Shown here one piece after another: positions 9,198 to 25,303 of a DNA stretch of 64,000 bases. A program made the position numbers and the translations under genes. Under the pieces are notes generated by a model. The model was not told where the DNA came from. It ran no database searches and saw nothing but the letters and a program-made list of their open reading frames with translations. The stretch's first letter is position 1; each line of letters opens with the position of its first letter. Source of the stretch: Chloroflexota bacterium (GTDB lineage Bacteria; Chloroflexota; Dehalococcoidia; JACPQK01); the NCBI GenBank assembly GCA_016190505.1, contig JACPQM010000052.1, positions 21,027 through 85,026 on the forward strand. Reading direction: 5' to 3'.

Positions 9198-10346
9198 TCA
9201 TTGTTCCATCGCCTGTCGGGGGGCACTGCCGGCACCGGCCAACGGCAGGGTAAGTTGCAGGCTGTCGTGATGATCTGCCCCGTCATCGTTGAGCCGCTGC
9301 CGAGGACGCAGGGCGAAGGCTTCCTCGAACGAGCGCGCGTCCAAAAACTTTTTCCTTAGCCCCTCATAAGGGGGGAAGGCGCCGCCATATCCGATAACGC
9401 GCCGGGCGCGGGCCACCATTTCGAGTTGAACGGCGGTCCACTTCGGACCGACGTGCTGGTTCTTCTTGAGTGAGTTGAGTGGCTCGAAGCGCATCGGGTA
9501 GGCGACAACGCCCCAGTCAAGCAGGTCGCGTACCTTGTCCAGGAACTCCTCCGGTGAGTCGTGAAAGTTGTACAGGACGTAGACAATCATCCTTCGCCGG
9601 TTGAATCCGGCCGCGGCGAGAGCTGGAATGGCCCTTTCCAAGGCCCTTCTCTCAGCAGGCACATCATAGGCCATGCGCACGGGGCTAATGCGCAGTCCCC
9701 GGAACTCCTGAGCTACATCCTGCGTGATCCGCCGAGCGTCGAGGCCCTGGTTGAAGTCCACCGGGAGCCCTATCTCCTTGAGCTCTGCAATAAGGTCTCG
9801 CCAGTTTGTCGCGCCTAGCAGGTTGTTGTCCCAGAGCACTACCTTCGTGTGGCCGGGGGCCACCAGGTGCCTGATAGCCTTAACCGTTATCGGCCCGTTG
9901 GACTTCTCCATTAGCGGGACCGCACAGTAAGGGCAGTGGTTGACACATCCCCGGTGGCTGAAAACGATGCTCTGGCGCCACCCGGGGATCGAAGAGTAAT
10001 AGTAATCAGGTAAGAGGTCCTCAGCATCTGCGAAAAGCCCTGAGTGCACCTCATCGGCTCCAGACCGGGCAGCGTGCTCCGGCATTAGGGTAGCATATAT
10101 CCCGCCCACGACCAACTTTGCTACGGGGAACGCCCTCTTGTAGTACGCTACAGCCTGGTGGACAGGCTGCCAGGCATAGGTGAACAGGCTGGTCACGTAC
10201 ACCTTGTCCGGCACTCGAGCAACCGGCTGGCGACCGCGCACCAGTTCAACGGTATTCCCCAGCAGCTTGTGGTATGTCGCCAGCTTCAGGAGCCCCAGTG
10301 GGGGGTAGCGGCTGTAGTAGGCCGGTTCGACTAGCAGGACATGCAA
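9198..10346 (-). CDS. Radical SAM protein with B12-binding-type N-terminal domain
   Basis: CxxxCxxC motif (RGCVNHCPYC); N-terminal YPPLGLLKLATY and VVGGIYATL; DFNQGLDAR. Confidence 0.85.
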   Translation of the reverse strand: MHVLLVEPAYYSRYPPLGLLKLATYHKLLGNTVELVRGRQPVARVPDKVYVTSLFTYAWQPVHQAVAYYKRAFPVAKLVVGGIYATLMPEHAARSGADEVHSGLFADAEDLLPDYYYSSIPGWRQSIVFSHRGCVNHCPYCAVPLMEKSNGPITVKAIRHLVAPGHTKVVLWDNNLLGATNWRDLIAELKEIGLPVDFNQGLDARRITQDVAQEFRGLRISPVRMAYDVPAERRALERAIPALAAAGFNRRRMIVYVLYNFHDSPEEFLDKVRDLLDWGVVAYPMRFEPLNSLKKNQHVGPKWTAVQLEMVARARRVIGYGGAFPPYEGLRKKFLDARSFEEAFALRPRQRLNDDGADHHDSLQLTLPLAGAGSAPRQAMEQ

Positions 10347-10366
10347 TGTGGGATTACGCCTGTTCT

Positions 10367-12145
10367 TTAGGTGAGCGAGAGGAGACGTTGCACGACTTCC
10401 AGGAGTTCGTGATGTTCACGACCTTGGTCGTCCTTGTAGCGGTCTCTCTCCAGAATCTCATCACAACTCATATGCCTCACGAGACCACAGCACCCGTCCC
10501 CGATTAGGTGCTTGACGTCGCAGAAATCGTCGTTGGGGATATCCTTTCCTGTTTGGCGGTGGACGCAGGTAGGGTGGAGGTAGTTCTCTATCTCCCTTTT
10601 CCTTGTGAAATGGGCAACGGCGCCGTCAGCTTCACACTCGTGCCTAACCTTCAATCTGTCTGTGGAAAGGGTGCTACTAGGGCCTCGCAGATCGCTGTCG
10701 GCGAAAACCCCGTATCGCCTGCTGAGAGCGCGCATTGCCTGCCTGTCTACCCACAGTTTCATGTTCCCCCAACCACCCACCGGAACCAACCCTATTTGTT
10801 TGTCGGCAAACGTGGCATCCACGCATCCAGCTTCCTTGAGCTTACACGCCACGTAAGTCAGGAACTCTACGTCATCCCTTCCCTCGACGAAAACACATGC
10901 GCGGTAGGCATAGATTTGATCGCTGGGTTCCACACCCATGTCGTCGGCCAAGGCCCGCAGGTCAACGGCGTCGCCTTGAATGACTTGGGCGCTTCCTTGG
11001 GGCTTGGTTACCCACACAAGCGAGCCTCTTTCGGTCGCACCGGCAAACACAGGGGAGTGCGAAGTGACAATAACCTGGTTTTCCGCTGCTATCGCCCTCA
11101 ACGACTTGAGTAGTTCACGTTGGGCCCCGGGGTGCAAGTACGTCTCGGGTTCCTCAATGCCGAAAACGCGGTTTGCGGTCAGACGGCCCTCCGCCCGCCG
11201 ACTGGCCAGGTAGCGAAAGTACGCAACCATGAGAAGACGACGTAGGCCAGCCCCCCGTTTCACGAGAGGGACTGCTACGCCATCCCGATCTCTGGCCTCA
11301 ATGCGAAAACCCACCATATCTTTCCATTTGAACTCGGGACTTGCGCTCAAGGAACTGATATCCTCGGTATGTTGGGACAGGAAGTCATGTATCTTACCTA
11401 ATTCTCCGTTAATGAACTGCTCGATTGACTCCTCGATAGACTGGCGCTCTGCCAGAGTCTTGGTTGCCTCATCAACCATATCCCTGAACACCCTCTGAAA
11501 TGGTGTCTCCTCTTCACTTAGGCGCCAATCGGCCGCAAACAGATTGAATGTCGGGAAGTAAAGGGCCAATCTTCTTAGAACATCTTCGTCAGGCTGAATC
11601 TCCAAATCTCGTAGGGCCACTGCGCCGTCTTTTGCCTTCTCTCTTAGCTGCGCTCGCTTGTTCTTGTTGGTGACCCCTCTGCCGGCCTTTGAGAAACCGA
11701 GACCATGTTTGTCACCGGCGGCATTCAGATCGCGCTCGCTCTTGGAACAGAGATTCTGGAAATCGGCATGGTCGAAATCATTCACCAGCAGTCTGGATTC
11801 TGGCTTCTTTGCGCCCCTGGCCCAGGTGCGTCTGATCACCAAGCGCCCTTCGCGGTTCAGCAGGTGCTCCTCCGCCAATGTAGTGGCAACCCCTTCCTCG
11901 AATTCTATGGCTGGTGGCACGTCTGCGAAGGCAATGGTGATTTCTATCCTGGCATCCGATGTAGCTCCACGATTCCAGTCATCGGGATCAAGGGGTCTGT
12001 TGCTGAAGAAGATGTCCAGGGCATGAAGCACGCTCGATTTGCCAACGTCGTTTCTCCCAACCAACGTAGTGAGGGCTCCGAGCTGAACAGAGGCCTCGGT
12101 GTCGAACGCCCGAAAGTTCTTGAGAGTCACCCACTCGATCTTCAC
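10367..12145 (-). CDS. OLD-family ATP-dependent nuclease (ABC/AAA_15 ATPase + TOPRIM)
   Basis: LKNFRAF, Walker A GRNDVGKSS, signature RGAGLRR, Walker B IEEPETYLHP, TSHSP, and TOPRIM VFVEGRDD with DSD. Confidence 0.85.
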   Translation of the reverse strand: MKIEWVTLKNFRAFDTEASVQLGALTTLVGRNDVGKSSVLHALDIFFSNRPLDPDDWNRGATSDARIEITIAFADVPPAIEFEEGVATTLAEEHLLNREGRLVIRRTWARGAKKPESRLLVNDFDHADFQNLCSKSERDLNAAGDKHGLGFSKAGRGVTNKNKRAQLREKAKDGAVALRDLEIQPDEDVLRRLALYFPTFNLFAADWRLSEEETPFQRVFRDMVDEATKTLAERQSIEESIEQFINGELGKIHDFLSQHTEDISSLSASPEFKWKDMVGFRIEARDRDGVAVPLVKRGAGLRRLLMVAYFRYLASRRAEGRLTANRVFGIEEPETYLHPGAQRELLKSLRAIAAENQVIVTSHSPVFAGATERGSLVWVTKPQGSAQVIQGDAVDLRALADDMGVEPSDQIYAYRACVFVEGRDDVEFLTYVACKLKEAGCVDATFADKQIGLVPVGGWGNMKLWVDRQAMRALSRRYGVFADSDLRGPSSTLSTDRLKVRHECEADGAVAHFTRKREIENYLHPTCVHRQTGKDIPNDDFCDVKHLIGDGCCGLVRHMSCDEILERDRYKDDQGREHHELLEVVQRLLSLT

Positions 12146-12158
12146 CGGCAGTCCCCCT

Positions 12159-15100
12159 TTATGCCTTCAGCTCCGCCAGCGACTCCTGGATTTCTTTCAA
12201 CTCGTCGTTGGTGAGGCCCCACAAATCTGCCGCCAGTTGGTCAATGCGCCTCTCTATGGCGGCAACTGTCTCCTGGTCGCCCTCCGCCGCTGCCTGGTGC
12301 GCCTGCTGGGAGAGAGCGACCAACTCGCGGTGGATCTTGTCTCCAGCCTTGAACTTGGGGACGCGAACGTGCTCAAGAATATGAGGGTCAGGATGCAGCA
12401 CAATACAGTTCTTGGATGCAAAGCGAAAGGGCGAGGAATTGACCATGCCGCAAACGTAATGGGCCTCCTGCCTGCCGCCGCAAGAGACCGCTACCAGAGT
12501 GTGGTCTGGCATTGCCACCTTGCCATCGGACTCCGCCACTGCGGCGTCGGCTTCTTCCCCAACTTCCCTCCATACAACCTTGTACTCAGCCAAAGTATGC
12601 TCACTAACGCCGAACATCGAATAGAACGGTGCTCCTTTTTCCATGAGCCCTCTGCTGCCGCGGTCCTTCCTCGCCCAAAGTACTTCATCAAACCGCTTGA
12701 GGTAGGCGTAGGCCTTGGGGTAGTGCAGCTTCATGTCGTCTTCAGGGATGCCCCGGCGTAGCTCGGGGTCCTGGACCATGATGATATGGGCGGAGGGTGT
12801 CGCGGCCCAGCGCCTCACATCCCTCCCTCGGAGCAATGGGTAAATCAGGTCTGGCTCGATAGCGGCCTGCACACTTTCCACTTTCGTCCTAGCGCCCTCG
12901 GTCAGGTTGGAGACCATGGCCAAGCCCTGAGGGGTGTGGCCCACCACGTTGACCCAGTACACACCGTTGGCCCCTCCGGTGTTGACCCCCTCGTGGGCCC
13001 CGTAGTCAGACTTGCCCAGGACCTTCCTTACTGCTGCCAGCGCCTTAGGCTTGCCGGTGAGCCAGGCGGAAGTAGGGTCGGCAGCGTCAATCGGTTCGGC
13101 TTCGAACTTCCGGTAGGTGGCAACATCAAGCACCTGCCGGAATGAGAAATCGGTGCCAATGCCAATGCCCTTGACCTTCTTCCACCAGAAGTTGTAGCTG
13201 ACCGGGTACCTGGTGGGCCTGCCCTTCTCCAGCACGACTATGCTGGTCCTGTTACTGGCCCCCTCAAAGGGTTGAAGCTTCGTCATGTCGTCCACGGCGA
13301 GCACCTGAAGGCGCGTGCCATCGCCCAGGACAAAGCGCCTGAATCCCTGGCCCGCCCCCGAGGTCTTGAACACCGACTGGGTGATCACGAAGCCGAGCTT
13401 ACCGCTCGGGTGCAGGTAGTCGTGCATGGCCGAATAGGTCATGAGCATCGAGATGTCTTTCTTGCCCTTGCCCAGGATGGTGTCCATGCCGCCGTGCGGA
13501 AATAGGCCGTGATAGACCCAAAGGCGCTTGGTGTCGTTCCGGTAGTCGTCGGGCAAGCTCTCCCAGTTCACCCACGGGGGATTGCCCGCCACATAGTCGA
13601 AGTGACCGCAGAACAAGGGAGCGAAGGCGTTCTTAATGATGCGCGCCCAGATACCGTTGATGGCCCTTTCGTCGAGCTCCCTGATCCTGGCGTAAAGCTG
13701 CTCCAGGGCTTGAATGTCGTGGGCATCCTTACCTTCTACCAGAGGGAAAGCTTGGAGCAGGCGCTTGCGGAACTCACTGACCGCGTACTTGCTGTCTACG
13801 CACTCCTCGACCAGCCCGGCAAGCTGGTCAATGTACTGCGCCTTGACCAGGGAGCCGGGTATGGCGAACTCCCCCACCACCGTTTTGAAGCGATAGAGGC
13901 GCTCCTCGGCACCCACCATGCGCACCTGCTTCTGGCCCTTCTCAGGCTTCTTGGCTTCTTCCGGCTCAACCATGTCTTGCCCCGCCTGGGACGGCGTAAG
14001 GATGGAGTCGCAAAGGTAGACAGGGATGTTTACGTCGAAGTCCCGCTGCGCCTGGAGGAGGTCGCCCAGGGCCAGGAGGTAGTTGGTGCGGGCGGAGATG
14101 ATGGCCAAGGGGTTCAGGTCGAATCCCTGTATGTTGGACAGGATTTTGCTCAGCACGTCCGCCGACCGGATCGGGCGCTCAGCGCAGTGCTCCTTCACGC
14201 GCTTGATGGCCAGTACCAGGAAGGTGCCGGAGCCACAGGCGGGGTCCAGTAGCCGCTTCTCTTGCAGTCTAGGTTCGCGCTCCGAGGTGAACCCAACCTG
14301 ATTCAGCAGCCGCTCCGCGAGCCAGTCTGGGGTGTAGTACTCGCCCAGGTCATGGCGAAGCTGCCTGGGCATCACGTTCTGGTACAGCTTCTTGAGGAGG
14401 TCCCTAGTCTCGTCGGGGTCGGCGTCCAGGGTCACCAGCGAGTAGTTGGCCAGCTCAGAGACGATGCGGCGTATACCCTTGTCCACGGGTTCATCCCACA
14501 CCTCCAGATACCAGCCGAAGAAGTCGCCCTCCAGAAAGTTGCTGATCCCCAGTTGCTTGAAGATGCCGCCGCGCTCCATGTCTTTGAGGTACTTCTGTAG
14601 GCGGTCGCTGGGATAGCTGGCCACCTGGGGTAAGGCTGTGCCCAGCTTGGGGGCCACATAATAGTGGACCACCTGGAGGGCCAGAAGCTTGATAAACGTG
14701 GCGTAGTAGGTGTGGATGGAGAAAAACAGCCTGAAGGCGTTGGGCTTGGGGTCCTGGACACCGTACTGCCTGGCCACGGCCCGTACGTCCAGGCGTGGCG
14801 AGCCTTCCTCGTAGCCGCAGACCTCGCTGAACTGCTGCCGCCACTGGCCGTATATTACCGTGACTTTCGGGCTGGGCGACTCGGCCAGCGCCTTGTAGAG
14901 AGAGCTGACGGCGAGGCGTGCCACATTGGTGTTCTCGCCAAAGTCCCGGACCAGGTTGTCGGCGGTCAGAGCTTTCTCAGTGCTAAGCAGGTACAGTGAG
15001 GCAAGAAAACGTCCGGTAGAATCGGCTGCTACTGGGAGGGGATCATCGGCATGCCACACACCGCCCCGGAAGCGACAGAAGATGAAGAAGAAGCCATCGG

Positions 15101-15476
15101 TGGCTACGCCGGCCAGGCGCTCGGGCTTGTGCCTCTCCACCTTTACCAAGTCTTCGATATACTGCTTTACCTGGCCTACGGCTTGACGGTTCTTCTGGCT
15201 ATCCCTGGGCGTGAGCCTGCCAGGAGGCTCGTACTCTATGACGAAGCGGTTGTACACTGCGTCGGCCCGGCCATTGATGAGGGTATATTCCTCGCGGGGC
15301 TGCAAGGTCAGACCAAGGCCCTCGGCAAATCCCTCCAAGACGCGCCCCCGAGCCAGGTTCCCCCTGAACTGGGCTTCGTTGCCAATAGCATCGAGCGCCG
15401 CCTTCTTGATCTGCTCGGCTACTTCAGGGGAGTGTACCCTGATGGTATCTTCGGCGCTTTCTGTTGCCTGCGTCAT
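12159..15476 (-). CDS. Type IIG / Eco57I-like N6-adenine DNA methyltransferase with putative N-terminal nuclease domain and C-terminal target-recognition domain
   Basis: GEYYTP, motif I LLDPACGSGTFL and motif IV FDYVAGNPPW; 1105 aa. The N-terminal RADAVYNRFVIEYE is PD-(D/E)xK-like. Confidence 0.9.
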   Translation of the reverse strand: MTQATESAEDTIRVHSPEVAEQIKKAALDAIGNEAQFRGNLARGRVLEGFAEGLGLTLQPREEYTLINGRADAVYNRFVIEYEPPGRLTPRDSQKNRQAVGQVKQYIEDLVKVERHKPERLAGVATDGFFFIFCRFRGGVWHADDPLPVAADSTGRFLASLYLLSTEKALTADNLVRDFGENTNVARLAVSSLYKALAESPSPKVTVIYGQWRQQFSEVCGYEEGSPRLDVRAVARQYGVQDPKPNAFRLFFSIHTYYATFIKLLALQVVHYYVAPKLGTALPQVASYPSDRLQKYLKDMERGGIFKQLGISNFLEGDFFGWYLEVWDEPVDKGIRRIVSELANYSLVTLDADPDETRDLLKKLYQNVMPRQLRHDLGEYYTPDWLAERLLNQVGFTSEREPRLQEKRLLDPACGSGTFLVLAIKRVKEHCAERPIRSADVLSKILSNIQGFDLNPLAIISARTNYLLALGDLLQAQRDFDVNIPVYLCDSILTPSQAGQDMVEPEEAKKPEKGQKQVRMVGAEERLYRFKTVVGEFAIPGSLVKAQYIDQLAGLVEECVDSKYAVSEFRKRLLQAFPLVEGKDAHDIQALEQLYARIRELDERAINGIWARIIKNAFAPLFCGHFDYVAGNPPWVNWESLPDDYRNDTKRLWVYHGLFPHGGMDTILGKGKKDISMLMTYSAMHDYLHPSGKLGFVITQSVFKTSGAGQGFRRFVLGDGTRLQVLAVDDMTKLQPFEGASNRTSIVVLEKGRPTRYPVSYNFWWKKVKGIGIGTDFSFRQVLDVATYRKFEAEPIDAADPTSAWLTGKPKALAAVRKVLGKSDYGAHEGVNTGGANGVYWVNVVGHTPQGLAMVSNLTEGARTKVESVQAAIEPDLIYPLLRGRDVRRWAATPSAHIIMVQDPELRRGIPEDDMKLHYPKAYAYLKRFDEVLWARKDRGSRGLMEKGAPFYSMFGVSEHTLAEYKVVWREVGEEADAAVAESDGKVAMPDHTLVAVSCGGRQEAHYVCGMVNSSPFRFASKNCIVLHPDPHILEHVRVPKFKAGDKIHRELVALSQQAHQAAAEGDQETVAAIERRIDQLAADLWGLTNDELKEIQESLAELKA

Positions 15477-15487
15477 GCCTCGCCTCC

Positions 15488-17212
15488 CTATGCCTGCTGC
15501 TGCCTGTAGGCAGGCTTGGGGAAGACAACCTTTACGGGCTGGCGGTATATGGCGTGAGAGAGCAGGAGCTCACCCTTGTTGAGGCGGGTCACGTTGAGCT
15601 TCAAGTCGTCGTCCAGGAACTTGTAGTCAGGCTGGAGCACTTCGGCGGAACCAGAGCGCCCCAAGACCTTGGTCGCGGCGTTGCCAGTGACGCGCGAATG
15701 CACGGCGCTCATGAACTGTTGGGCCGAGACGAGGATGACCCCCAGGGACCGCCCCCTCTCCGCGATGTCCAACACTTGCTCGGAGATTGGCGATGTTTTC
15801 GCGCCGCTGGGGGCATATTTGTTCAGCTCGTCCACGAAGAAGATGATCTTGTCAGGTACTTCCTCTTCGCCTTCTTCAGGGGCCTCGGCCTTGAGAGCGT
15901 AGACGGTCTTAAGCAGGTCGCCGAACACCAAGGTCTGCTCGGCGTCGGCAAGCTTGGCTATGTCCACCACGTAAACATGGCCGCCCTTGATCTTGCCTAT
16001 CTCGGCGCTGAGCACTTTCTCGTTGATGGCACGGGATTCCACGAAGATCCCCGTCTGCCGGGTGTGAACCAGACGGCGAAGATGTCTTCGGAACTTACCT
16101 ACTGAGGACCCGAGGTGGTCTCCCAGCCTTACGGTCTTCTTTGCGGTGGGGTCAAACAGCGGTGGACCATAAAGCAAGGTCATCCAACTGCGCACGGCCT
16201 TGAAATCGGCCTGTCCTCCCTGGAGGCCAATCATGATGTCTCCGATGATGGACTCCATCGTCCCAGAGGGGTCCGAGACATCGCTGAAGAGCAGGTCTAG
16301 CTTGTCGGCAGTGGCTTCAAGGTCGTAGGCGTAGGTGGTGTAGATGCTAGGCGGGAAGAAGCTGTTGGGCTGAATCCCATCCTTGCTTCGCGGCAGGAAA
16401 TAGTGGACTTTGCCCGGCTCAAAGGGCTTGGGTTCCAGGCCCAGCTTCTCCCACTTCTCCTTCTCTTCGGGCGGCAGGTCCGGGCCCCGTTCATCAATGT
16501 GCAGCAAGTCGGCCTGCTTCACGTTCATGATGATGACGGCTATCTTCGTCGGATCGTCGGCTTTCTGAAGTATAGACTGGATGATGAACATGGCGTAGGA
16601 AGTCTTCGTCGCCAGCCCGCTGATCCCCGAGATGTTGATATGGGCAGATTCCGGGCCCAGCACGTAGCGGCGGTCAATGTAAGCCACCGCAGAAGCGCCG
16701 TTGCTCATGCTGATCAAACCGGCAGGAACTCGGTTTTTCAACTCCATTTGGTCAATGCCCAGAGCCTCTTCAATCCCATTGGCATCCGCAAACGTAACCA
16801 CTCGTTCGTTGGGAACAGGCATGTACACATTGGCGTTATTGCTGAGGACATTCACTTTGGCTATGGTGGTGCCCTGGCGAGGCGTGTTCGGTTCCTCGGC
16901 CAGACTACCGAAATTGCTGGATATAAAGTTGGCCAGGTGATTGGGCGCATCGGTCCGGTGTTCAAGGGTGGTGACCAGGCCGTAGGTCTTGCTGGCCTTG
17001 TTGTCCGGAGCAACCTGACCGACTTGCACAATGTCAAACGGGTTGACTATGACTTCGGGCGAAAGCCAGAAATTGAACTTGTCCGAGGTGCTGGGGTCTC
17101 GCTCCGTGGCGGAACTGCGCCCGACGGGCGCCTCGGCCGCCTTCCCCGGGGTTTGAGCTCCGTTCTTCTCGAGGGTGACCTGTGTAGGGGCTTGTATGCT
17201 CTCGTTCACCAT
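15488..17212 (-). CDS. HerA/FtsK-family ATPase with N-terminal HAS-barrel-like domain
   Basis: Variant Walker A GISGLATKTS, Walker B IFFVDELNKY and arginine-finger region ERGRSLGVILVSAQQ. ATG at 17212 follows GGAGGAGG. Confidence 0.85.
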   Translation of the reverse strand: MVNESIQAPTQVTLEKNGAQTPGKAAEAPVGRSSATERDPSTSDKFNFWLSPEVIVNPFDIVQVGQVAPDNKASKTYGLVTTLEHRTDAPNHLANFISSNFGSLAEEPNTPRQGTTIAKVNVLSNNANVYMPVPNERVVTFADANGIEEALGIDQMELKNRVPAGLISMSNGASAVAYIDRRYVLGPESAHINISGISGLATKTSYAMFIIQSILQKADDPTKIAVIIMNVKQADLLHIDERGPDLPPEEKEKWEKLGLEPKPFEPGKVHYFLPRSKDGIQPNSFFPPSIYTTYAYDLEATADKLDLLFSDVSDPSGTMESIIGDIMIGLQGGQADFKAVRSWMTLLYGPPLFDPTAKKTVRLGDHLGSSVGKFRRHLRRLVHTRQTGIFVESRAINEKVLSAEIGKIKGGHVYVVDIAKLADAEQTLVFGDLLKTVYALKAEAPEEGEEEVPDKIIFFVDELNKYAPSGAKTSPISEQVLDIAERGRSLGVILVSAQQFMSAVHSRVTGNAATKVLGRSGSAEVLQPDYKFLDDDLKLNVTRLNKGELLLSHAIYRQPVKVVFPKPAYRQQQA

Positions 17213-17228
17213 TTCGGCCTCCTCCACC

Positions 17229-18356
17229 TCAGGGTGCACCTGGCTTGGGCCATTTGATGGCTCCCATGAGCACTTGCTGGGAAAAGAACCGGTTCTTGGT
17301 GGCCTGCTCCGCCATAAAGATGGGATAGATGTGGCAGTGCCAACGCCTGTCCAAGCCGTATGGGGTGACGCTTCGTTCTGCTACCAGGGCCCGGGACAGC
17401 AGGTCCGCCAAGTCAGCGGGCACCGGCTTCCGGTCGGGTCGGGGCAACTCTACCTTGACCACGCCCATAAGAGGATAGTCCAGGTCCTTTTGTTCCCACA
17501 TCCTGACGTACCAGAAAGCGACCTTCCCGTCATAAGCCTTGAAGGCCATCGTGCGGTGGGCATAGGGCAGCGCCGCCAGGATGGTGGTAACGTCCCTCTT
17601 CTCGGATTTCCTTGCCCCAAAGTAGAACTGGGGCTCCTTGCTGAATGATTTTGCCACCCCGATCAAGTGAGGCGCGGAGATGAAGTCTCCGAGTTTGACA
17701 GCGCCGTCTATTATTAGCCAGCTATCCTCGCTCCGGAGATGGTCCGTTGCCTTGATAAGCTCGGCCTCCATCTCGTGCATCCGGAAACGCGCTTTACCGC
17801 CCGCCTTGTCCCTGGGGTCTTTCTTGTCGTCGCCAAATACATCTGGAATGTCGAAATCAACTATCTGTAGGACGCTGCCGGGCGGTTGAACCTTTGAGAG
17901 CTGGGTCCAGACCGAATCCGACACTCCGCGAGCACCCTTGGGAACGAGAAGCAAAACCTTGAGGTCGCTGGAAAGGGTGCTGAGGTGCCCGTGCTCGTCC
18001 CGGGTGACCACGGATGCCCCAATCTGCGCCAACTCGATGGGGAAAGTCCGAGTACCCTCGATCCCCGTGGCCAGGAAGTACGTCCGTAGGCTTCCGTCCA
18101 AGAAGAACCTGAACAGATGACGTTCCGCACGAGGCAATGGAGGCGTCGGCCTGTATATGTTGGTGGTCGAAGGCTCAGGCTCTTCGGCGAAGGCTGTGAC
18201 ATCCTTGTCCATTTCCTTGTGGACCAGGACATCGTCAATCTCGTCCTGGTCTGGGTGCTGTAGGTCTTCGACGGCCGTGCCCGTGGCCGGCAATATGTTG
18301 AGGTTCTTGCCCAGCAGTTCCAGGGCCGGAGTGATTACCGACAAGGGGTTGGGCAC
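17229..18356 (-). CDS. NurA-like (RNase H fold) nuclease
   Basis: FFLDGSLRTY and LIIDGAV acidic motifs, GVAKS, late EQ; lies directly upstream of a herA-like gene. Confidence 0.7.
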   Translation of the reverse strand: MPNPLSVITPALELLGKNLNILPATGTAVEDLQHPDQDEIDDVLVHKEMDKDVTAFAEEPEPSTTNIYRPTPPLPRAERHLFRFFLDGSLRTYFLATGIEGTRTFPIELAQIGASVVTRDEHGHLSTLSSDLKVLLLVPKGARGVSDSVWTQLSKVQPPGSVLQIVDFDIPDVFGDDKKDPRDKAGGKARFRMHEMEAELIKATDHLRSEDSWLIIDGAVKLGDFISAPHLIGVAKSFSKEPQFYFGARKSEKRDVTTILAALPYAHRTMAFKAYDGKVAFWYVRMWEQKDLDYPLMGVVKVELPRPDRKPVPADLADLLSRALVAERSVTPYGLDRRWHCHIYPIFMAEQATKNRFFSQQVLMGAIKWPKPGAP

Positions 18357-19793: not shown

Positions 19794-20379
19794 CTGGCCC
19801 TGCGACGCGTCAAACGCCCGCGCTGTGTCGCTGCGAAGCTGGGTTGTTGTCGGTGGCAGGGTCACACGCGCTGTCCCACCTGCCCACGTCACCCTTTGTG
19901 TCAACAAACGTTTCGCCCATTCCCGACCCTCCCCGGATTACCCACATAACCGCTAGTTCCTCTTGTGGCACGCAAGGGCAGATTGTTCCACGCCGCTTGC
20001 GGCTCGTGGGTGGGGCAACCCGATCGGCTGGGCCAGCGCGGCCCTGTGGTGGCCCTGGCGTGCCCTCGCAGGCCCTCGCCCAGGGTCGGGCATCACACAA
20101 TGCTCAGCCAAGGCCCTGAGGCCGCCAGGGGCTGGGCCGCCTTGCCCTGGCCTTTCGTCTTCCGCTCGCCCCTGCCTTTGCGAACGCCTTGGCCCTTCGG
20201 CTCTGCCTCAGAGAGACAGATAGCAAGACATAGAGAGGCAGAGATACAGAGGGAACAAAGTAGTGCCTTTTCCAGGGGGCACTTTTCCCCCTATTGTGGG
20301 ACGATAAGGATGCTAGATTTTGAATCTAGCTGGCACCTTGACAACTGTATACGGTCCCTGGCACCAGGTGGCACCTTGG

Positions 20380-20720
20380 GCTAGGAAAGCAAGGTCACCG
20401 GAAGCTGGAAGCCTGTTAGGCAAGTCCGAATGGCATGGCGTAGCCAGACCTAAGCCAAGGCGGTAGTGACCTTGGCGAAGCGATACCGTAGCAGTCTACG
20501 CCTCAGACCTAGCCAGTCTGGGGACATACTACCGACATAGGGTTAGGCCAGTCCCGACAATGTCGGGACGCCAGTAGCGTGGATTTAGCCCGACTATGGG
20601 TTTGCTATAGCGTTCCCGCTACTGGTTCGGCAACCTAACCCTTCCGACTAGTCCCGACAGTAGTCGGGATCGCCCACCGCTTGGGCGGGGCGCAGTCCCC
20701 ACAAGTCGGCTGTGCGCAAT
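20380..20720 (+). ncRNA. Candidate large structured non-coding RNA / leader
   Basis: No credible ORF. Nested helices: 20390-98/20466-74 (9 bp), 20487-500 hairpin, 20501-23 hairpin, 20539-47/20634-42 (9 bp), 20551-69 hairpin, 20571-79/20617-25 (9 bp) and 20651-70 hairpin. Confidence 0.55.
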
Positions 20721-21294
20721 CTACAAACGAAAGGATTGAGCATGCCCGACGTCAAGACACCTCAGTACATTATGGACCTTCTGCGCCCCATGTCCCAACA
20801 GTCCAACGCTGACCGGCGGGTGTGGAGCATCCCGCTCCAGACGGTCTGGGTGCCCTTCTTCACCGCCACCAACGTGGTGGGGCAGACGCGCCTGGCCGAC
20901 GAGAGCCTGGGCGCCCCCCTGCGCCTGGCCAAGGACAAGGACGGGGCCGTCCGGTTCACCAAGCAGGGCCGTCCCGTCATCTCCGTGGCCAAGGAGCTTT
21001 CGACCAACGTCCGCATGGTGCGGGAGAACTTCCAGGCCGGCCTGGTGGCCTTCACTTCCCACGTGCGCAAGGCCAACGCCGAGGGCTACAAGTCCCAGGT
21101 GGAGCGCGCCCTGGCCGCAGGCCAGCCCATCGTCGAGAGCGACGGTAAGGCCCTGGTCGAGGCCATATCCGAGCGCGAGGAAGCCGAGGCCAAGGCCTCG
21201 GCCAGGGCGCCCCAGGACACCCGCGAGCCTGTGGCCGCATAGGAACCCCAGTCAGCGCATAGTCCCTCTTGTGGGGACTTCGCCCCGTCCAAGC
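20679..21294. repeat. Imperfect 40-bp inverted repeat (20679-20717 / 21255-21294) flanking ORF 20742-21242
   Basis: gcttgggcggggcgcagtccccacaagtcgg-ctgtgcgc vs the reverse complement gcttggacggggcgaagtccccacaagagggactatgcgc: 34 of 40 positions match, and two of the mismatches are G-U compatible on the + strand. Confidence 0.85.
20742..21242 (+). CDS. Hypothetical protein (166 aa) of the integrative element
   Basis: AAGGA RBS before ATG 20742; strong GC3 coding bias. Confidence 0.8.
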   Translation: MPDVKTPQYIMDLLRPMSQQSNADRRVWSIPLQTVWVPFFTATNVVGQTRLADESLGAPLRLAKDKDGAVRFTKQGRPVISVAKELSTNVRMVRENFQAGLVAFTSHVRKANAEGYKSQVERALAAGQPIVESDGKALVEAISEREEAEAKASARAPQDTREPVAA

Positions 21295-21319: not shown

Positions 21320-21949
21320 ATGCGCTATCCTCAGTGGGCGACGCCGGAGCGAAGGGCGCACCTGGTGGCCATGTGGTCCAGGCTGGGCAACCGGTGTCTC
21401 TTGGGACACCTGGGCTGTAGTGAGCCGGAGCACTTTGTCCATACCAGGGTCAAGCCCGAGGTGGTGGGTGTCCCCGTGGCCCTCAAGGTTGTGGGCAAGG
21501 ACGGCACAGTCCGCGTGCTCAACACCCACCAGCCCCGCAAGGTCTACGTCCAGACCGCCGAGTGGGTAGGCGGCATCTACTACCTGGTGGAAGACGAGGT
21601 TGTCCAGGAGTGGGTGAGCGACGACAGGGCCGAGAGGGCCGCCTTGCTTCAGGCGGAGAGACGGCGACTCCATGACGACCAGTACCGTATCCGCCAGGGC
21701 CAGTGGGACAACGTAGCCCGTGAGCAGTGGTCAGAGCGCCACGGCATCTACTACCTGGAAGGCATGACCGTGGACGCCCTCACCCACAAGCGGGTGGCCA
21801 AGGTGCGCATCGCCAGTAGCCCCGTGCGTCTCTGGGTAACCATGCCCAGCCAGAACGCCAAGCGCAAGGCCCGGCGCTATGGCAAAGAGGGCGCCAGGAG
21901 CGACGACGAAGCCATCGTCCAGGCGGTGAAGCACTACTTGAATAGCTAG
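21320..21949 (+). CDS. Hypothetical protein with possible C-H-C-H zinc site (CLLGHLGCSEPEH)
   Basis: GAGGGG/AGGAG RBS; strong coding bias; 209 aa from ATG 21320. Confidence 0.75.
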   Translation: MRYPQWATPERRAHLVAMWSRLGNRCLLGHLGCSEPEHFVHTRVKPEVVGVPVALKVVGKDGTVRVLNTHQPRKVYVQTAEWVGGIYYLVEDEVVQEWVSDDRAERAALLQAERRRLHDDQYRIRQGQWDNVAREQWSERHGIYYLEGMTVDALTHKRVAKVRIASSPVRLWVTMPSQNAKRKARRYGKEGARSDDEAIVQAVKHYLNS

Positions 21950-23591: not shown

Positions 23592-25031
23592 ATGCGCGGC
23601 ATGGGCTTGACACCGGATAGGGGCTATCCTCAGAATTGGTGCCTAAAGAGCGGAAGCCCCTGTGCGGGGGCGATTGATGCCGGAGCAGCGAGGAGGCCCC
23701 TCATGCCCAGAAGCATGGCCAGACTAGCGCAGCCCCGGGGCGATGCCAAGGCCCCGGTTCCATCTACGCCATCCCCAGAGTCAGTAATGGCCGATGCCGA
23801 TGCGTTCTTTGCCGAGGGTACCCCAGGCGAAGACTTTCTCTCTTCATTGGAAGTAAAGCAAGTCCCATACCCCAGCAACCTTGACATTCAAGATCGCATC
23901 GAGGAAACCAAGGCCGAGATCTCCCACCGCATTGCGGAACTGGAAACCCGTTTGGCGCAACTGGGGGGCATTGTATCGGCGACCTCACATCCCCAAGTAC
24001 CGAGCATCTCGACCGCATCCCTTATCGATCTCTTGCTAGCGCAAAAAGCCCACAAGGGCGTGAAAGATAGTCATGGCAGGACTCTGGCGAAGCACGTCAG
24101 GCGGTTTGGCAAGGCCTTCCCATCCTTGCCCCTCGACTCTCAGGCCATCATTGAGTATCTGTCGCAGTTCAATGGAATATCCGGCCGCACGCGGCGGAAT
24201 CACCAGGATAGTCTACGACAGCTTTACAAGGTCGCCGCGGCCCGGCTTGGCGTCCCTAATGTGTTGGCCCAGATTGAACGCCCGCTGGTGCGCCAGCGGC
24301 CGCCACGGACCCTATCCCTGGACCAAGTGCGCCTCGTCGTCGCCGCCGCAATGGAAGGAATGGAGAGGACTGCGCTGGATCTGGCACTAGGCCATGGCTG
24401 GCGGCAAGTGGAGGTCAGGAGGATAACTGGCGAAGATGTCCGCGCAATCGAGGCAGGTCTGATTGCATGCCACGGGAAAGAACGAGAAGAGCTCGCGCCC
24501 GTGCTTCCCGAAACCGTAGAGCGACTGTCACGGCTAGCTGAGGGGTGTTCAGGGCCTATCTTCCTGGACCGCCGGGGGCGCTCGCAGCCGTTGGGTGAGG
24601 ATGGCATGAGCGATTTGCTCAAAGGCATCATGAACAGGGCGAGGGTGAGTGGTTTCAGTGGCCACGACCTTCGCCGTACGTTCGCAACCCTCGTGCGCGA
24701 TGCCTCAGGGGACGAGCTGCTGGCAATGAGGCTGCTTCGCGATCGGGTTCCTGGCGTGGCAGACCGTTACCTCGCATCCAATCTGGGAGAACTTTGCCGG
24801 GCGCTTCAAAACTACTCCCCGGTTAGGCAGATCCATCACGAAGTGCCGCATCACAACAACGGCCAGGGGCGCCGCACTGTCGACGCCAACCCCCCGGCAA
24901 ACCCTCACGCACCCCCCCGTCAGACCGCAGCTTTAGCAGGCCGGGGGGATACATGGTGGAGACGGGGGGGAGTCGAACCCCCCGTCCAGAGACGGACACC
25001 CAGGCTGCCTACAAGCTTATCCGACCATTAG
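23592..25031 (+). CDS. Tyrosine recombinase / phage-type integrase (true start probably further downstream, e.g. 23703)
   Basis: Catalytic residues R (GWRQVE), K (GKE), HxxR (HDLRRTFAT) and Y (ADRY); SAM-like N-domain. The ORF tail overlaps the ssrA 3' end in antisense. Confidence 0.85.
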   Translation: MRGMGLTPDRGYPQNWCLKSGSPCAGAIDAGAARRPLMPRSMARLAQPRGDAKAPVPSTPSPESVMADADAFFAEGTPGEDFLSSLEVKQVPYPSNLDIQDRIEETKAEISHRIAELETRLAQLGGIVSATSHPQVPSISTASLIDLLLAQKAHKGVKDSHGRTLAKHVRRFGKAFPSLPLDSQAIIEYLSQFNGISGRTRRNHQDSLRQLYKVAAARLGVPNVLAQIERPLVRQRPPRTLSLDQVRLVVAAAMEGMERTALDLALGHGWRQVEVRRITGEDVRAIEAGLIACHGKEREELAPVLPETVERLSRLAEGCSGPIFLDRRGRSQPLGEDGMSDLLKGIMNRARVSGFSGHDLRRTFATLVRDASGDELLAMRLLRDRVPGVADRYLASNLGELCRALQNYSPVRQIHHEVPHHNNGQGRRTVDANPPANPHAPPRQTAALAGRGDTWWRRGGVEPPVQRRTPRLPTSLSDH

Positions 25032-25303
25032 CTCTCGCCCTGCCTGTGGCCGTCGGCCGCCCCCTGGCAGGGCCAGTCGGTTACTTTTCTTTGACGGGCC
25101 AGACCGACATAGGGCCCATCGCACCCCTTCTGTTCGGCGCCTTGACCAGGCCCGAAGGGTGAAGCCTGGGAGGCGTAGTCGCTGTTTAGGCGGCTAGGGC
25201 GAAATCGTTTGCGCCAGTTATGTTTTGCCCCGTTTTTACGAGGTCAGGGCGCCTCGGCTTGCCATCCTGGGACGCCACACCCCTGTCGAAACCACGCGTC
25301 CCC
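24954..25303 (-). ncRNA. ssrA: tmRNA (350 nt); tag reading frame (A)GANDFALAA*
   Basis: 5' GGGGACG pairs with 3' CGTCTCC-ACCA including the G3-U alanine identity pair. T-arm GGTTCGACTCC; ATAACT-GGC GCA AAC GAT TTC GCC CTA GCC GCC TAA; smpB lies ~1 kb upstream. Confidence 0.95.

Follow-up and report, generated by a model that had tools for sequence, protein, structure and literature searches.

A probable family of structured 5' leader RNAs in Chloroflexota, with a divergent long member beside a tmRNA gene

What is the densely base-paired, apparently non-coding region that precedes an open reading frame (ORF) at position 20742 in a Chloroflexota genome? The region, positions 20380-20720, belongs to a window of 64,000 nucleotides (nt), by which we mean the whole stretch of DNA analysed (contig JACPQM010000052.1 of assembly GCA_016190505.1), from a metagenome-assembled genome (MAG) of 3.2 Mb in 100 contigs. 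An initial annotation, made from the sequence alone, described at least seven nested helices with mutually exclusive alternatives and proposed a novel large non-coding RNA of no known class. From sequence comparison we conclude that the region is probably the body of a structured 5' leader of about 430 nt (about 20310-20744, plus strand), which belongs to the first operon of an element beside a transfer-messenger RNA (tmRNA) gene. The feature exceeds the region first flagged: it starts at about 20310-20332 and ends at the start codon (20742), and a separate stretch, 21255-21294, can pair with it.

The dense pairing and the helices listed in the initial annotation are borne out by computation. 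A repeat search of the window sequence reveals three exact inverted repeats of 9 base pairs (bp) in the flagged stretch:

20539-47 / 20634-42, inverted repeat AGGGTTAGG/CCTAACCCT, exact, 9 bp
20551-59 / 20561-69, inverted repeat GTCCCGACA/TGTCGGGAC, exact, 9 bp
20571-79 / 20617-25, inverted repeat CCAGTAGCG/CGCTACTGG, exact, 9 bp

RNAfold nests these three repeats as a multibranch domain accompanied by further hairpins. The minimum free energy (MFE) of 20380-20720 is -145.1 kcal/mol (z = -3.49), a stability reached by none of 100 shuffled sequences, and the full leader (20310-20760) exhibits z = -6.1. The reverse strand of 20380-20720 folds comparably (z = -3.86), so that folding alone cannot name the strand. 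The region holds no long ORF with homologues and lies upstream of ORF 20742-21242, hereafter gene 1. Since the 3' end of the leader pairs with the Shine-Dalgarno and start-codon region of this ORF, the RNA is at least a 5' leader. Its description as non-coding and structured is supported by these fold statistics and by the covariation among homologues presented below. The proposal of a novel large non-coding RNA thus largely stands as regards a new structured RNA, and less so as regards a free-standing one, the RNA being continuous with the messenger RNA (mRNA) of ORF 20742.

Does the leader have relatives? About 50 homologous loci were collected, all from Chloroflexota MAGs. A BLASTN comparison of the leader with 46 homologous upstream regions exhibits no primary-sequence similarity, and the family is therefore visible only through motifs and structure. 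These upstream regions share a common layout: a 5' motif GCACCUUAACAAA (the "anchor"), a long-range helix P1 that closes the 5' domain, within this domain a hairpin between the purine-rich strands GAAUAG and GAAAG, a CAUAG/CAUAR junction, a helix S in which an AUACGC-type strand is paired with the start codon, and a helix LR. The anchor, CACCTT[ATG]ACAA, heads nearly all homologous leaders. The leader is about 200 nt long in most loci and about 430 nt in the window; we refer to short and long types accordingly.

The covariation proposed as a check in the initial annotation, among homologous upstream regions of ORF 20742, was looked for and found. Several MAFFT alignments misplaced the motifs, and RNAalifold predicted no structure on the raw MAFFT alignment, which was too gappy. 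We used two covariance models, R1 for the 5' domain and R2 for the 3' domain, with seeds from which the variable hairpins had been trimmed in most sequences. R1 identifies 38 leaders in 523 kb (27-60 bits, E-values 1e-9 to 7e-3), all of them on the plus strand and directly upstream of gene 1, with no match elsewhere in the 523 kb; R2 identifies 34. Paired cells make up 87% of the R1 alignment; shuffles reach 63% and slid controls 19-38%. Compensatory double changes occur in 12 of 12 pairs, this alignment being fitted to the R1 model and so biased towards structure. The R1 helices contain 32 G.U and 18 A.C mismatches. The helices were also assessed by a permutation test, in which a strand is paired either with its own partner or with the partners from other loci, thereby controlling for composition and fitting freedom. 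For the short-type P1 the native energy is -6.0 kcal/mol and the non-native energy -3.3 kcal/mol (p <= 2e-4); for S, with the window included, the values are -11.9 and -7.3 kcal/mol (p <= 2e-4). On these comparisons, the family is likely to represent a structured leader RNA upstream of a two-gene module in Chloroflexota, absent from Rfam. Beyond the collected loci, R1 found no leader in 401 Chloroflexota genomes, a search that is uninformative given the rarity of the family and the lack of a positive control. The 19-nt pattern GCCCACCGCTTGRGCGGGG occurs in 25 metagenome loci and no viral ones, with a single true relative, already in the locus set.

How does the leader meet the gene that it precedes? 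Its last segment has two partners, formed from the following elements of the window:

20671..20687, plus strand, local hairpin CGCCCACCGCUUGGGCG, a competitor of LR, conserved in loci L055, L054 and L053
20679..20717, plus strand, left arm of LR; 39 positions against 21255-21294, with 34 Watson-Crick and 2 G.U pairs
20711..20721, plus strand, 5' strand of S, UGUGCGCAAUC, overlapping the LR left arm by 7 nt
20730..20744, plus strand, Shine-Dalgarno sequence AAAGGA and 3' strand of S, GAUUGAGCAUG, including the start codon at 20742
21255..21294, plus strand, right arm of LR, between the gene-1 stop codon and the ribosome-binding site of gene 2

In the window S pairs 20711-21 with 20734-44 at 10 of 11 positions, as read from the sequence, with a duplex energy of -10.4 kcal/mol. 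LR corresponds to a 40-nt inverted repeat, the arms of which lie at -63..-25 from the AUG and at +15..+54 after the stop codon. As the LR left arm holds the 5' strand of S, S and LR are mutually exclusive. Folding of the leader by itself yields the local helices, among them the hairpin at 20671-87; in the fold of a 1026-nt transcript LR is present in both the MFE structure and the centroid, and S and the local hairpin are absent. One of the alternatives pointed out at the outset (cgccca/tgggcg against the long-range stem) is therefore real, and it is a family-wide feature. About 30 of the 32 loci, short and long types alike, possess LR arms: a segment of 25-39 nt lies at -62..-24 from the AUG, and its partner 9-50 nt past the stop codon of gene 1. 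The arms are at least 88% Watson-Crick paired in nearly all loci. Among 25 non-redundant loci the best partner of each left arm is its own right arm in all 25 (p <= 1e-4); the native energy is -61.5 kcal/mol against -26.4 kcal/mol for non-native pairs, with left arms only 56% identical between loci. The mismatches within the arms comprise 31 G.U, 8 A.C and 24 others (binomial p = 3e-4). This excess of G.U indicates selection on a plus-strand RNA, unlike a DNA inverted repeat. The Shine-Dalgarno sequence of gene 2 is located 12 nt beyond the right arm, and the ribosome-binding site of gene 1 lies 24 nt inside the loop closed by LR.

Is the window leader, about twice the usual size, a member of this family? 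Synteny and shared motifs place it there, as do the LR helix and the comparison with four relatives. It lies directly upstream of the gene-1 homologue on the same strand. Its closest relatives are loci L053-L055, reached via the nearest proteins, and L046 shares the long layout. The window copy is most plausibly a divergent, expanded member of the family, with an extra multibranch domain, formed by helices P4 and P5, after CAUAG. The features of the window leader preceding those already listed are the following:

20291..20309, plus strand, candidate promoter, with a TTGT box CTATTGTGGG and a -10-like sequence ACGATAAGG
20312..20330, plus strand, 5' hairpin GCUAGAUUUUGAAUCUAGC (inverted repeat I12), present in every fold
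20332..20344, plus strand, family 5' motif (anchor) GGCACCUUGACAA, matching CACCTT[ATG]ACAA
20344..20355, plus strand, 5' strand of P1, ACUGU-A-UACGGU, pairing with 20485-20495 (11 bp, one bulge)
20415..20433, plus strand, degenerate counterpart of GAAUAG-hairpin-GAAAG, GUUAGGCAAGUCCGAAUGG, aligning with GAUUAGGCUUGCCAAGGCCGAAAGCC of L053 and the equivalents in L054, L055 and L046; unscored by R1
20485..20495, plus strand, 3' strand of P1, ACCGUAGCAGU, as in the fold of the leader alone
20501..20523, plus strand, hairpin CCUCAGAC...GUCUGGGG, an insertion relative to L046
20525..20540, plus strand, junction CAUACUACCGACAUAG (the CAUAG of the family), a block kept in L055, L053, L046 and L054
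20539..20547, plus strand, 5' strand of P4, AGGGUUAGG, the closing helix of the initial annotation, 9/9 bp with 20634-42
20571..20579, plus strand, 5' strand of P5, CCAGUAGCG, the long arm of the initial annotation, 9/9 bp with 20617-25
20617..20625, plus strand, 3' strand of P5, CGCUACUGG, pairing with 20571-79
20634..20642, plus strand, 3' strand of P4, CCUAACCCU, pairing with 20539-47

P1 of the window is present in the MFE structure and the centroid of the leader alone, and in the centroid, not the MFE structure, of 20330-20545; it gives way to a local hairpin in the fold of the 1026-nt transcript. In the relatives P1 likewise directly follows the anchor (CUGAAUAGGGC/GCCCUAUUCAG in L046, GCAUAGGCU/AGCCUAUGC in L053). 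Long types then exhibit a conserved CAUACC..AACAUAG block, where P4 begins, and short types CAUAR. The P4 position pairs in all four relatives: GGUUAGGCC/GGCCGAACC in L055, GUGGGA..UAGGC/GCCUAUCCCAC in L053, GCCUGGGUU/AACCCAGGC in L046 and CUGGCCU/AGGCCAG in L054. In the last three the sequence has changed yet remains paired, and the native energy is -19.3 kcal/mol against -13.6 kcal/mol for non-native pairs. P5 covaries as well (AAGGUAG/CUACCUU in L055, CACACCGG/CUGGUGUG in L053, CUACCG/CGGUAG in L046, CAUAGGC/GCCUAUG in L054), and its arms in the relatives enclose a conserved module, AAGGGUAGGAARGUAGAYUUCCUUG. The multibranch domain with its closing stem and long arm, as drawn in the initial annotation, thus recurs with compensatory changes and appears to be a real, conserved feature of this subfamily. 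Four long-type loci (L046, L054, L022 and L032) yield R2 scores of 10-16 bits, and the matches directly precede the start codons, as expected.

In most loci the 5' motif is preceded, at a distance of 10-50 nt, by the box TTTGT-N4-6-AYAAT(G)AAGC; the place of the 20312-20330 hairpin is taken in other loci by a variable hairpin. A promoter on the minus strand, read from the anchor as TTGTCA-16-CAAAAT, was considered and rejected, its spacing not being conserved between loci. Many loci (e.g. L041, L044, L037, L020, L003 and L008) carry a further DNA motif, AATATAGGTTCATTYTGTT...TGAAC, about 30-110 nt upstream of the anchor. This motif, which includes a GTTCA/TGAAC palindrome some 32 nt before the TTTGT box, may serve as an operator or as a second promoter; its counterpart in the window is limited to GGGAACAAAG at 20251-60. 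The window also contains three TGGCACC copies within 45 nt (20331-20375), and the anchor sequence GGCACCUUG is duplicated at 20370-78, the two copies pairing with each other in the fold.

Part of the apparent complexity of the window leader has a different source. The palindrome GTCCCGA-N3-8-TCGGGA occurs in 202 forward and 201 reverse copies in the 3.2-Mb genome, compared with 1-2 for the reversed control. Many of these copies, which resemble repetitive extragenic palindromic (REP) elements, are found at contig ends, where they probably break the assembly; their flanking contexts are diverse, and they often lie inside longer repeats (...GTCATTGCGAG...). Two of them are located in the leader:

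20551..20569, no strand assigned, REP-like palindrome GTCCCGACAATGTCGGGAC, a motif of about 200 copies in the genome
20651..20670, no strand assigned, second REP-like palindrome GTCCCGACAGTAGTCGGGAT, the same motif of about 200 copies

The GTCCCGAC hairpins share with REP elements the form of a short palindrome in hundreds of genome copies. Unlike a REP element, the leader is explained in this way for two hairpins only: the remainder is single-copy, as are its genes, and is unique in the host genome outside the REP cores. A segment at 20695-20712 resembles a degraded copy, and further copies occur elsewhere in the window, e.g. at 22014-31 and 22159-76. The relatives carry an unrelated hairpin at the position of 20551-69, and the window leader appears to have acquired two host REP-like hairpins at positions where hairpins are tolerated. 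These two hairpins account for part of the dense pairing and for the first alternative of the initial annotation. The seven or more helices do exist, two of them being copies of a host repeat, and the switch proposed between ccgacta/tagtcgg and gtcccga/tcgggat reduces to cross-pairing between repeat copies. This carries a warning for annotation: REP-like hairpins of the host may lie within an RNA structure that has a function and make it seem more complex than it is.

Is the RNA already known? The 4227 models of Rfam 15 were scanned at gathering thresholds and at E <= 10. Within the window only the tmRNA (24954-25303) is matched, and the leader is not; at E <= 10 nothing credible is found in 19900-21000 or in the typical member L028, and a scan of 12 homologous loci returns one tRNA only. 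The early failure to assign the region to a known RNA class is thereby upheld, and literature searches returned no description of this leader RNA. Like the large mobile-element RNAs of Rfam (GOLLD, ROOL, HEARO/omega RNA, STAXI, Chloroflexi-1), it is a large structured RNA tied to integrases and mobile DNA; unlike them, it matches none of the models. The leader family is apparently an undescribed, genuine structured RNA.

What might the leader do? Its helices covary, occupy fixed positions relative to the start and stop codons and exhibit a plus-strand bias; post-transcriptional control of gene 1, or its processing, is the likeliest role. In a nascent transcript S would form first and block initiation. 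Once the right arm has been transcribed, the far more stable LR could displace S, pairing over about 540 nt and looping out the whole gene-1 cistron with its ribosome-binding site. This would either free the start codon and ribosome-binding site or offer a duplex of 25-39 bp for cleavage of the RNase III type, and such cleavage would detach the 5' domain and part the gene-1 message from gene 2 and the downstream genes.

The proposed design resembles several known systems in part. Like translational operators and riboswitch-type leaders, it places in cis a conserved domain, which a long-range helix closes, ahead of a covarying start-codon helix; it differs in serving mobile-element genes and in offering the sequestering strand another, far stronger partner past the ORF. 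RNase III processing stems flank the 16S and 23S ribosomal RNAs (rRNAs) in rRNA operons, phage mRNAs also contain RNase III sites, and the enzyme needs roughly 20 bp. LR is similar in being long, near-perfect, above about 20 bp and formed by both flanks of the enclosed unit, as in a helix flanking a processed unit. It is different in that the enclosed unit is a protein-coding cistron together with a ribosome-binding site, and cleavage of LR is putative. In hok mRNA and in the fold-back inhibition of IS10, the 5' part of an mRNA pairs with a distant downstream segment in competition with local structures at the translation start. The leader shares this competition through its long-range pairing; unlike those systems it is associated with no small toxin ORF or transposase, and its partner follows the stop codon of a 166-amino-acid (aa) gene with further genes beyond. 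To our knowledge almost no regulatory RNAs have been described in Chloroflexota, a poorly studied phylum. If our reading is correct, the leader would add to this phylum an undescribed structured RNA family with strong covariation. It would also exhibit an unusual design, in which one leader strand chooses between the start codon and a partner past the stop codon and a 25-39 bp duplex loops out a cistron. It would further provide a testable model for the timing and processing of the first genes of a mobile element, and a handle on two widespread protein families with more than 300 homologues.

Could these observations be explained otherwise? If RNase III cuts LR, the domain of P1 (with P4 and P5 in long types) might be released as a stand-alone RNA that functions in trans or joins the two proteins in a particle. 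By analogy with the processing stems of rRNA operons, a near-perfect helix of 25-39 bp flanking a unit would suit such a release, and both the conservation and the covariation of the 5' domain are independent of the start-codon region. The protein of gene 2 contains a C-terminal alpha-beta-beta-beta-alpha unit with a conserved basic SKNxRRKAIRYGK motif, and about 15 of its top 50 matches in PDB are proteins with a double-stranded RNA-binding domain (dsRBD). Against this, all the fold matches are weak (E-values 0.5-2, template modelling (TM) scores 0.12-0.17) and Pfam dsrm does not match; the modelled resemblance may be taken as a lead only. In addition, the R1 search of 523 kb never found the RNA away from gene 1. 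We regard a stand-alone RNA as rather unlikely. Equally tentative is a broader view of the system as an RNA-protein module of Chloroflexota mobile elements, in which the 5' domain would be an orphan riboswitch or a trans-acting RNA freed by LR cleavage and would act with the two proteins, one perhaps binding double-stranded RNA. A plain riboswitch, with the P1-closed domain as the aptamer for a small molecule and S and LR as the expression platform, is less probable still. The short type does combine a conserved, covarying aptamer-like domain with a platform at the ribosome-binding site: it exhibits conserved junctions (ACAAA, GAAUAG, GAAAG, CAUAG), a covarying P1, variable peripheral hairpins and a start-codon helix downstream. 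However, the genes that follow are family-less mobile-element genes rather than metabolic or transport genes that would hint at a ligand, and the conserved loop sequences are missing from the window copy, which would be odd for an aptamer.

At the level of DNA, the repeats flanking gene 1 might serve the recombination of a cassette that inverts or moves, or the folded region might be a single-strand origin, as the equal folding of both strands, the inverted repeats on either side of the ORF and the recombinase encoded by a mobile element could suggest. This is highly improbable in view of the G.U to A.C ratios (31:8 in the LR arms, 32:18 in the R1 helices), which favour a plus-strand RNA. Moreover, the genes are co-oriented in all two-gene loci (42/46), the leaders in 38 of 38, and no flipped copy is seen; one strand of S contains the start codon, and the arms, at 56% identity, lack a common core sequence between loci. 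That the pairing merely reflects chance in G+C-rich intergenic DNA, with host repeat hairpins added and no function, is hardly credible. Two hairpins are indeed REP-like repeats, and the sub-region 20330-20545 taken alone folds no better than shuffles (z = -0.03); but covariation and positional conservation extend across the family, the leader as a whole folds with z = -6.1, and outside the REP cores it is single-copy.

For a cis-acting 5' leader of the proposed family, several points weigh on the other side. On the window R1 scores only the 13-nt anchor (8.9 bits, E-value 0.039 in a 601-nt search), and the best R2 score in L001, the locus that contains the window region, is 9.4 bits (E-value 3.2) for a match unmapped to window coordinates. 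The evidence for P1, P4 and P5 of the long type comes from 3-5 related sequences only, and the pairing statistics of R1 carry the structural bias of their fitted alignment. A strict sigma-70 scan exhibits no plus-strand promoter at the head of the leader. The order in which the helices fold, cleavage by RNase III and whether regulation turns gene 1 on or off belong to the predicted part of this reading. A pseudoknot or anti-Shine-Dalgarno pairing of the sequence after CAUAG was unsupported (p = 0.22). A pairing of the anchor with the Shine-Dalgarno sequence was likewise dropped, native combinations being no better than non-native ones.

What kind of DNA carries the leader? The genes that bear on this question are the following:

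20742..21242, plus strand, gene 1, 166 aa, the cistron that LR would loop out
21320..21949, plus strand, gene 2, about 210 aa, with an ATG at 21320; the ORF is listed from 21269
23592-25031, plus strand, tyrosine integrase gene, 479 aa, abutting the tmRNA gene
24954-25303, minus strand, tmRNA gene (175 bits), its 3' end overlapping the end of the integrase gene

The guanine plus cytosine (G+C) content is lower up to about 25 kb of the window than beyond. The tmRNA gene, the abutting integrase and this lower G+C content together indicate that the leader lies in DNA integrated at ssrA. A direct repeat of the tmRNA 3' end is not found elsewhere in the window, which leaves the far border of the element undefined.

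Gene 1 has 308 homologues, none of them named, and exhibits no match in Pfam, PHROG or NCBIfam. Its AlphaFold2 (AF2) model, with a predicted local distance difference test score (pLDDT) of 84.5, has no significant fold match in PDB or BFVD. Gene 2 likewise has no Pfam, PHROG or NCBIfam match, and its AF2 model (pLDDT 84.4) no significant fold match. The N-terminus of its family bears a conserved PKWATPERQ..LV..C..GH..C motif. As the homologues begin at the position of MRYPQWATPER, the annotated TTG start of gene 2 at 21269 is probably 17 codons too early. A gene-2 homologue follows gene 1 in 42 of 46 genome-assembly loci; a contig end truncates most of the others.

The module is present in multiple copies in several genomes, with six loci in one MAG, MFD03726.bin.1.10 (L011, L012, L013, L021, L023 and L031). 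The six modules there each comprise a leader and the gene pair; the leaders are near-identical over about 400 nt and the flanks diverge, a pattern that suggests recent spread of the element. In longer elements (L049, 11706-16397; L051, 12499-17917) the gene pair is followed by genes for Prok_Ub, Prok-E2_D, Prok-JAB, ThiF (E1-like) and a DNA polymerase III beta-clamp-like protein; the element in the window is without such Prok_Ub, E2, JAB, ThiF and clamp-like genes. On the minus strand of the window, 9198-18356 holds an operon of large genes, encoding an N6-adenine methyltransferase of 1105 aa, an AAA_15/OLD-like ATPase, a B12-binding-domain protein and two family-less products; this operon resembles defence cargo of the island.

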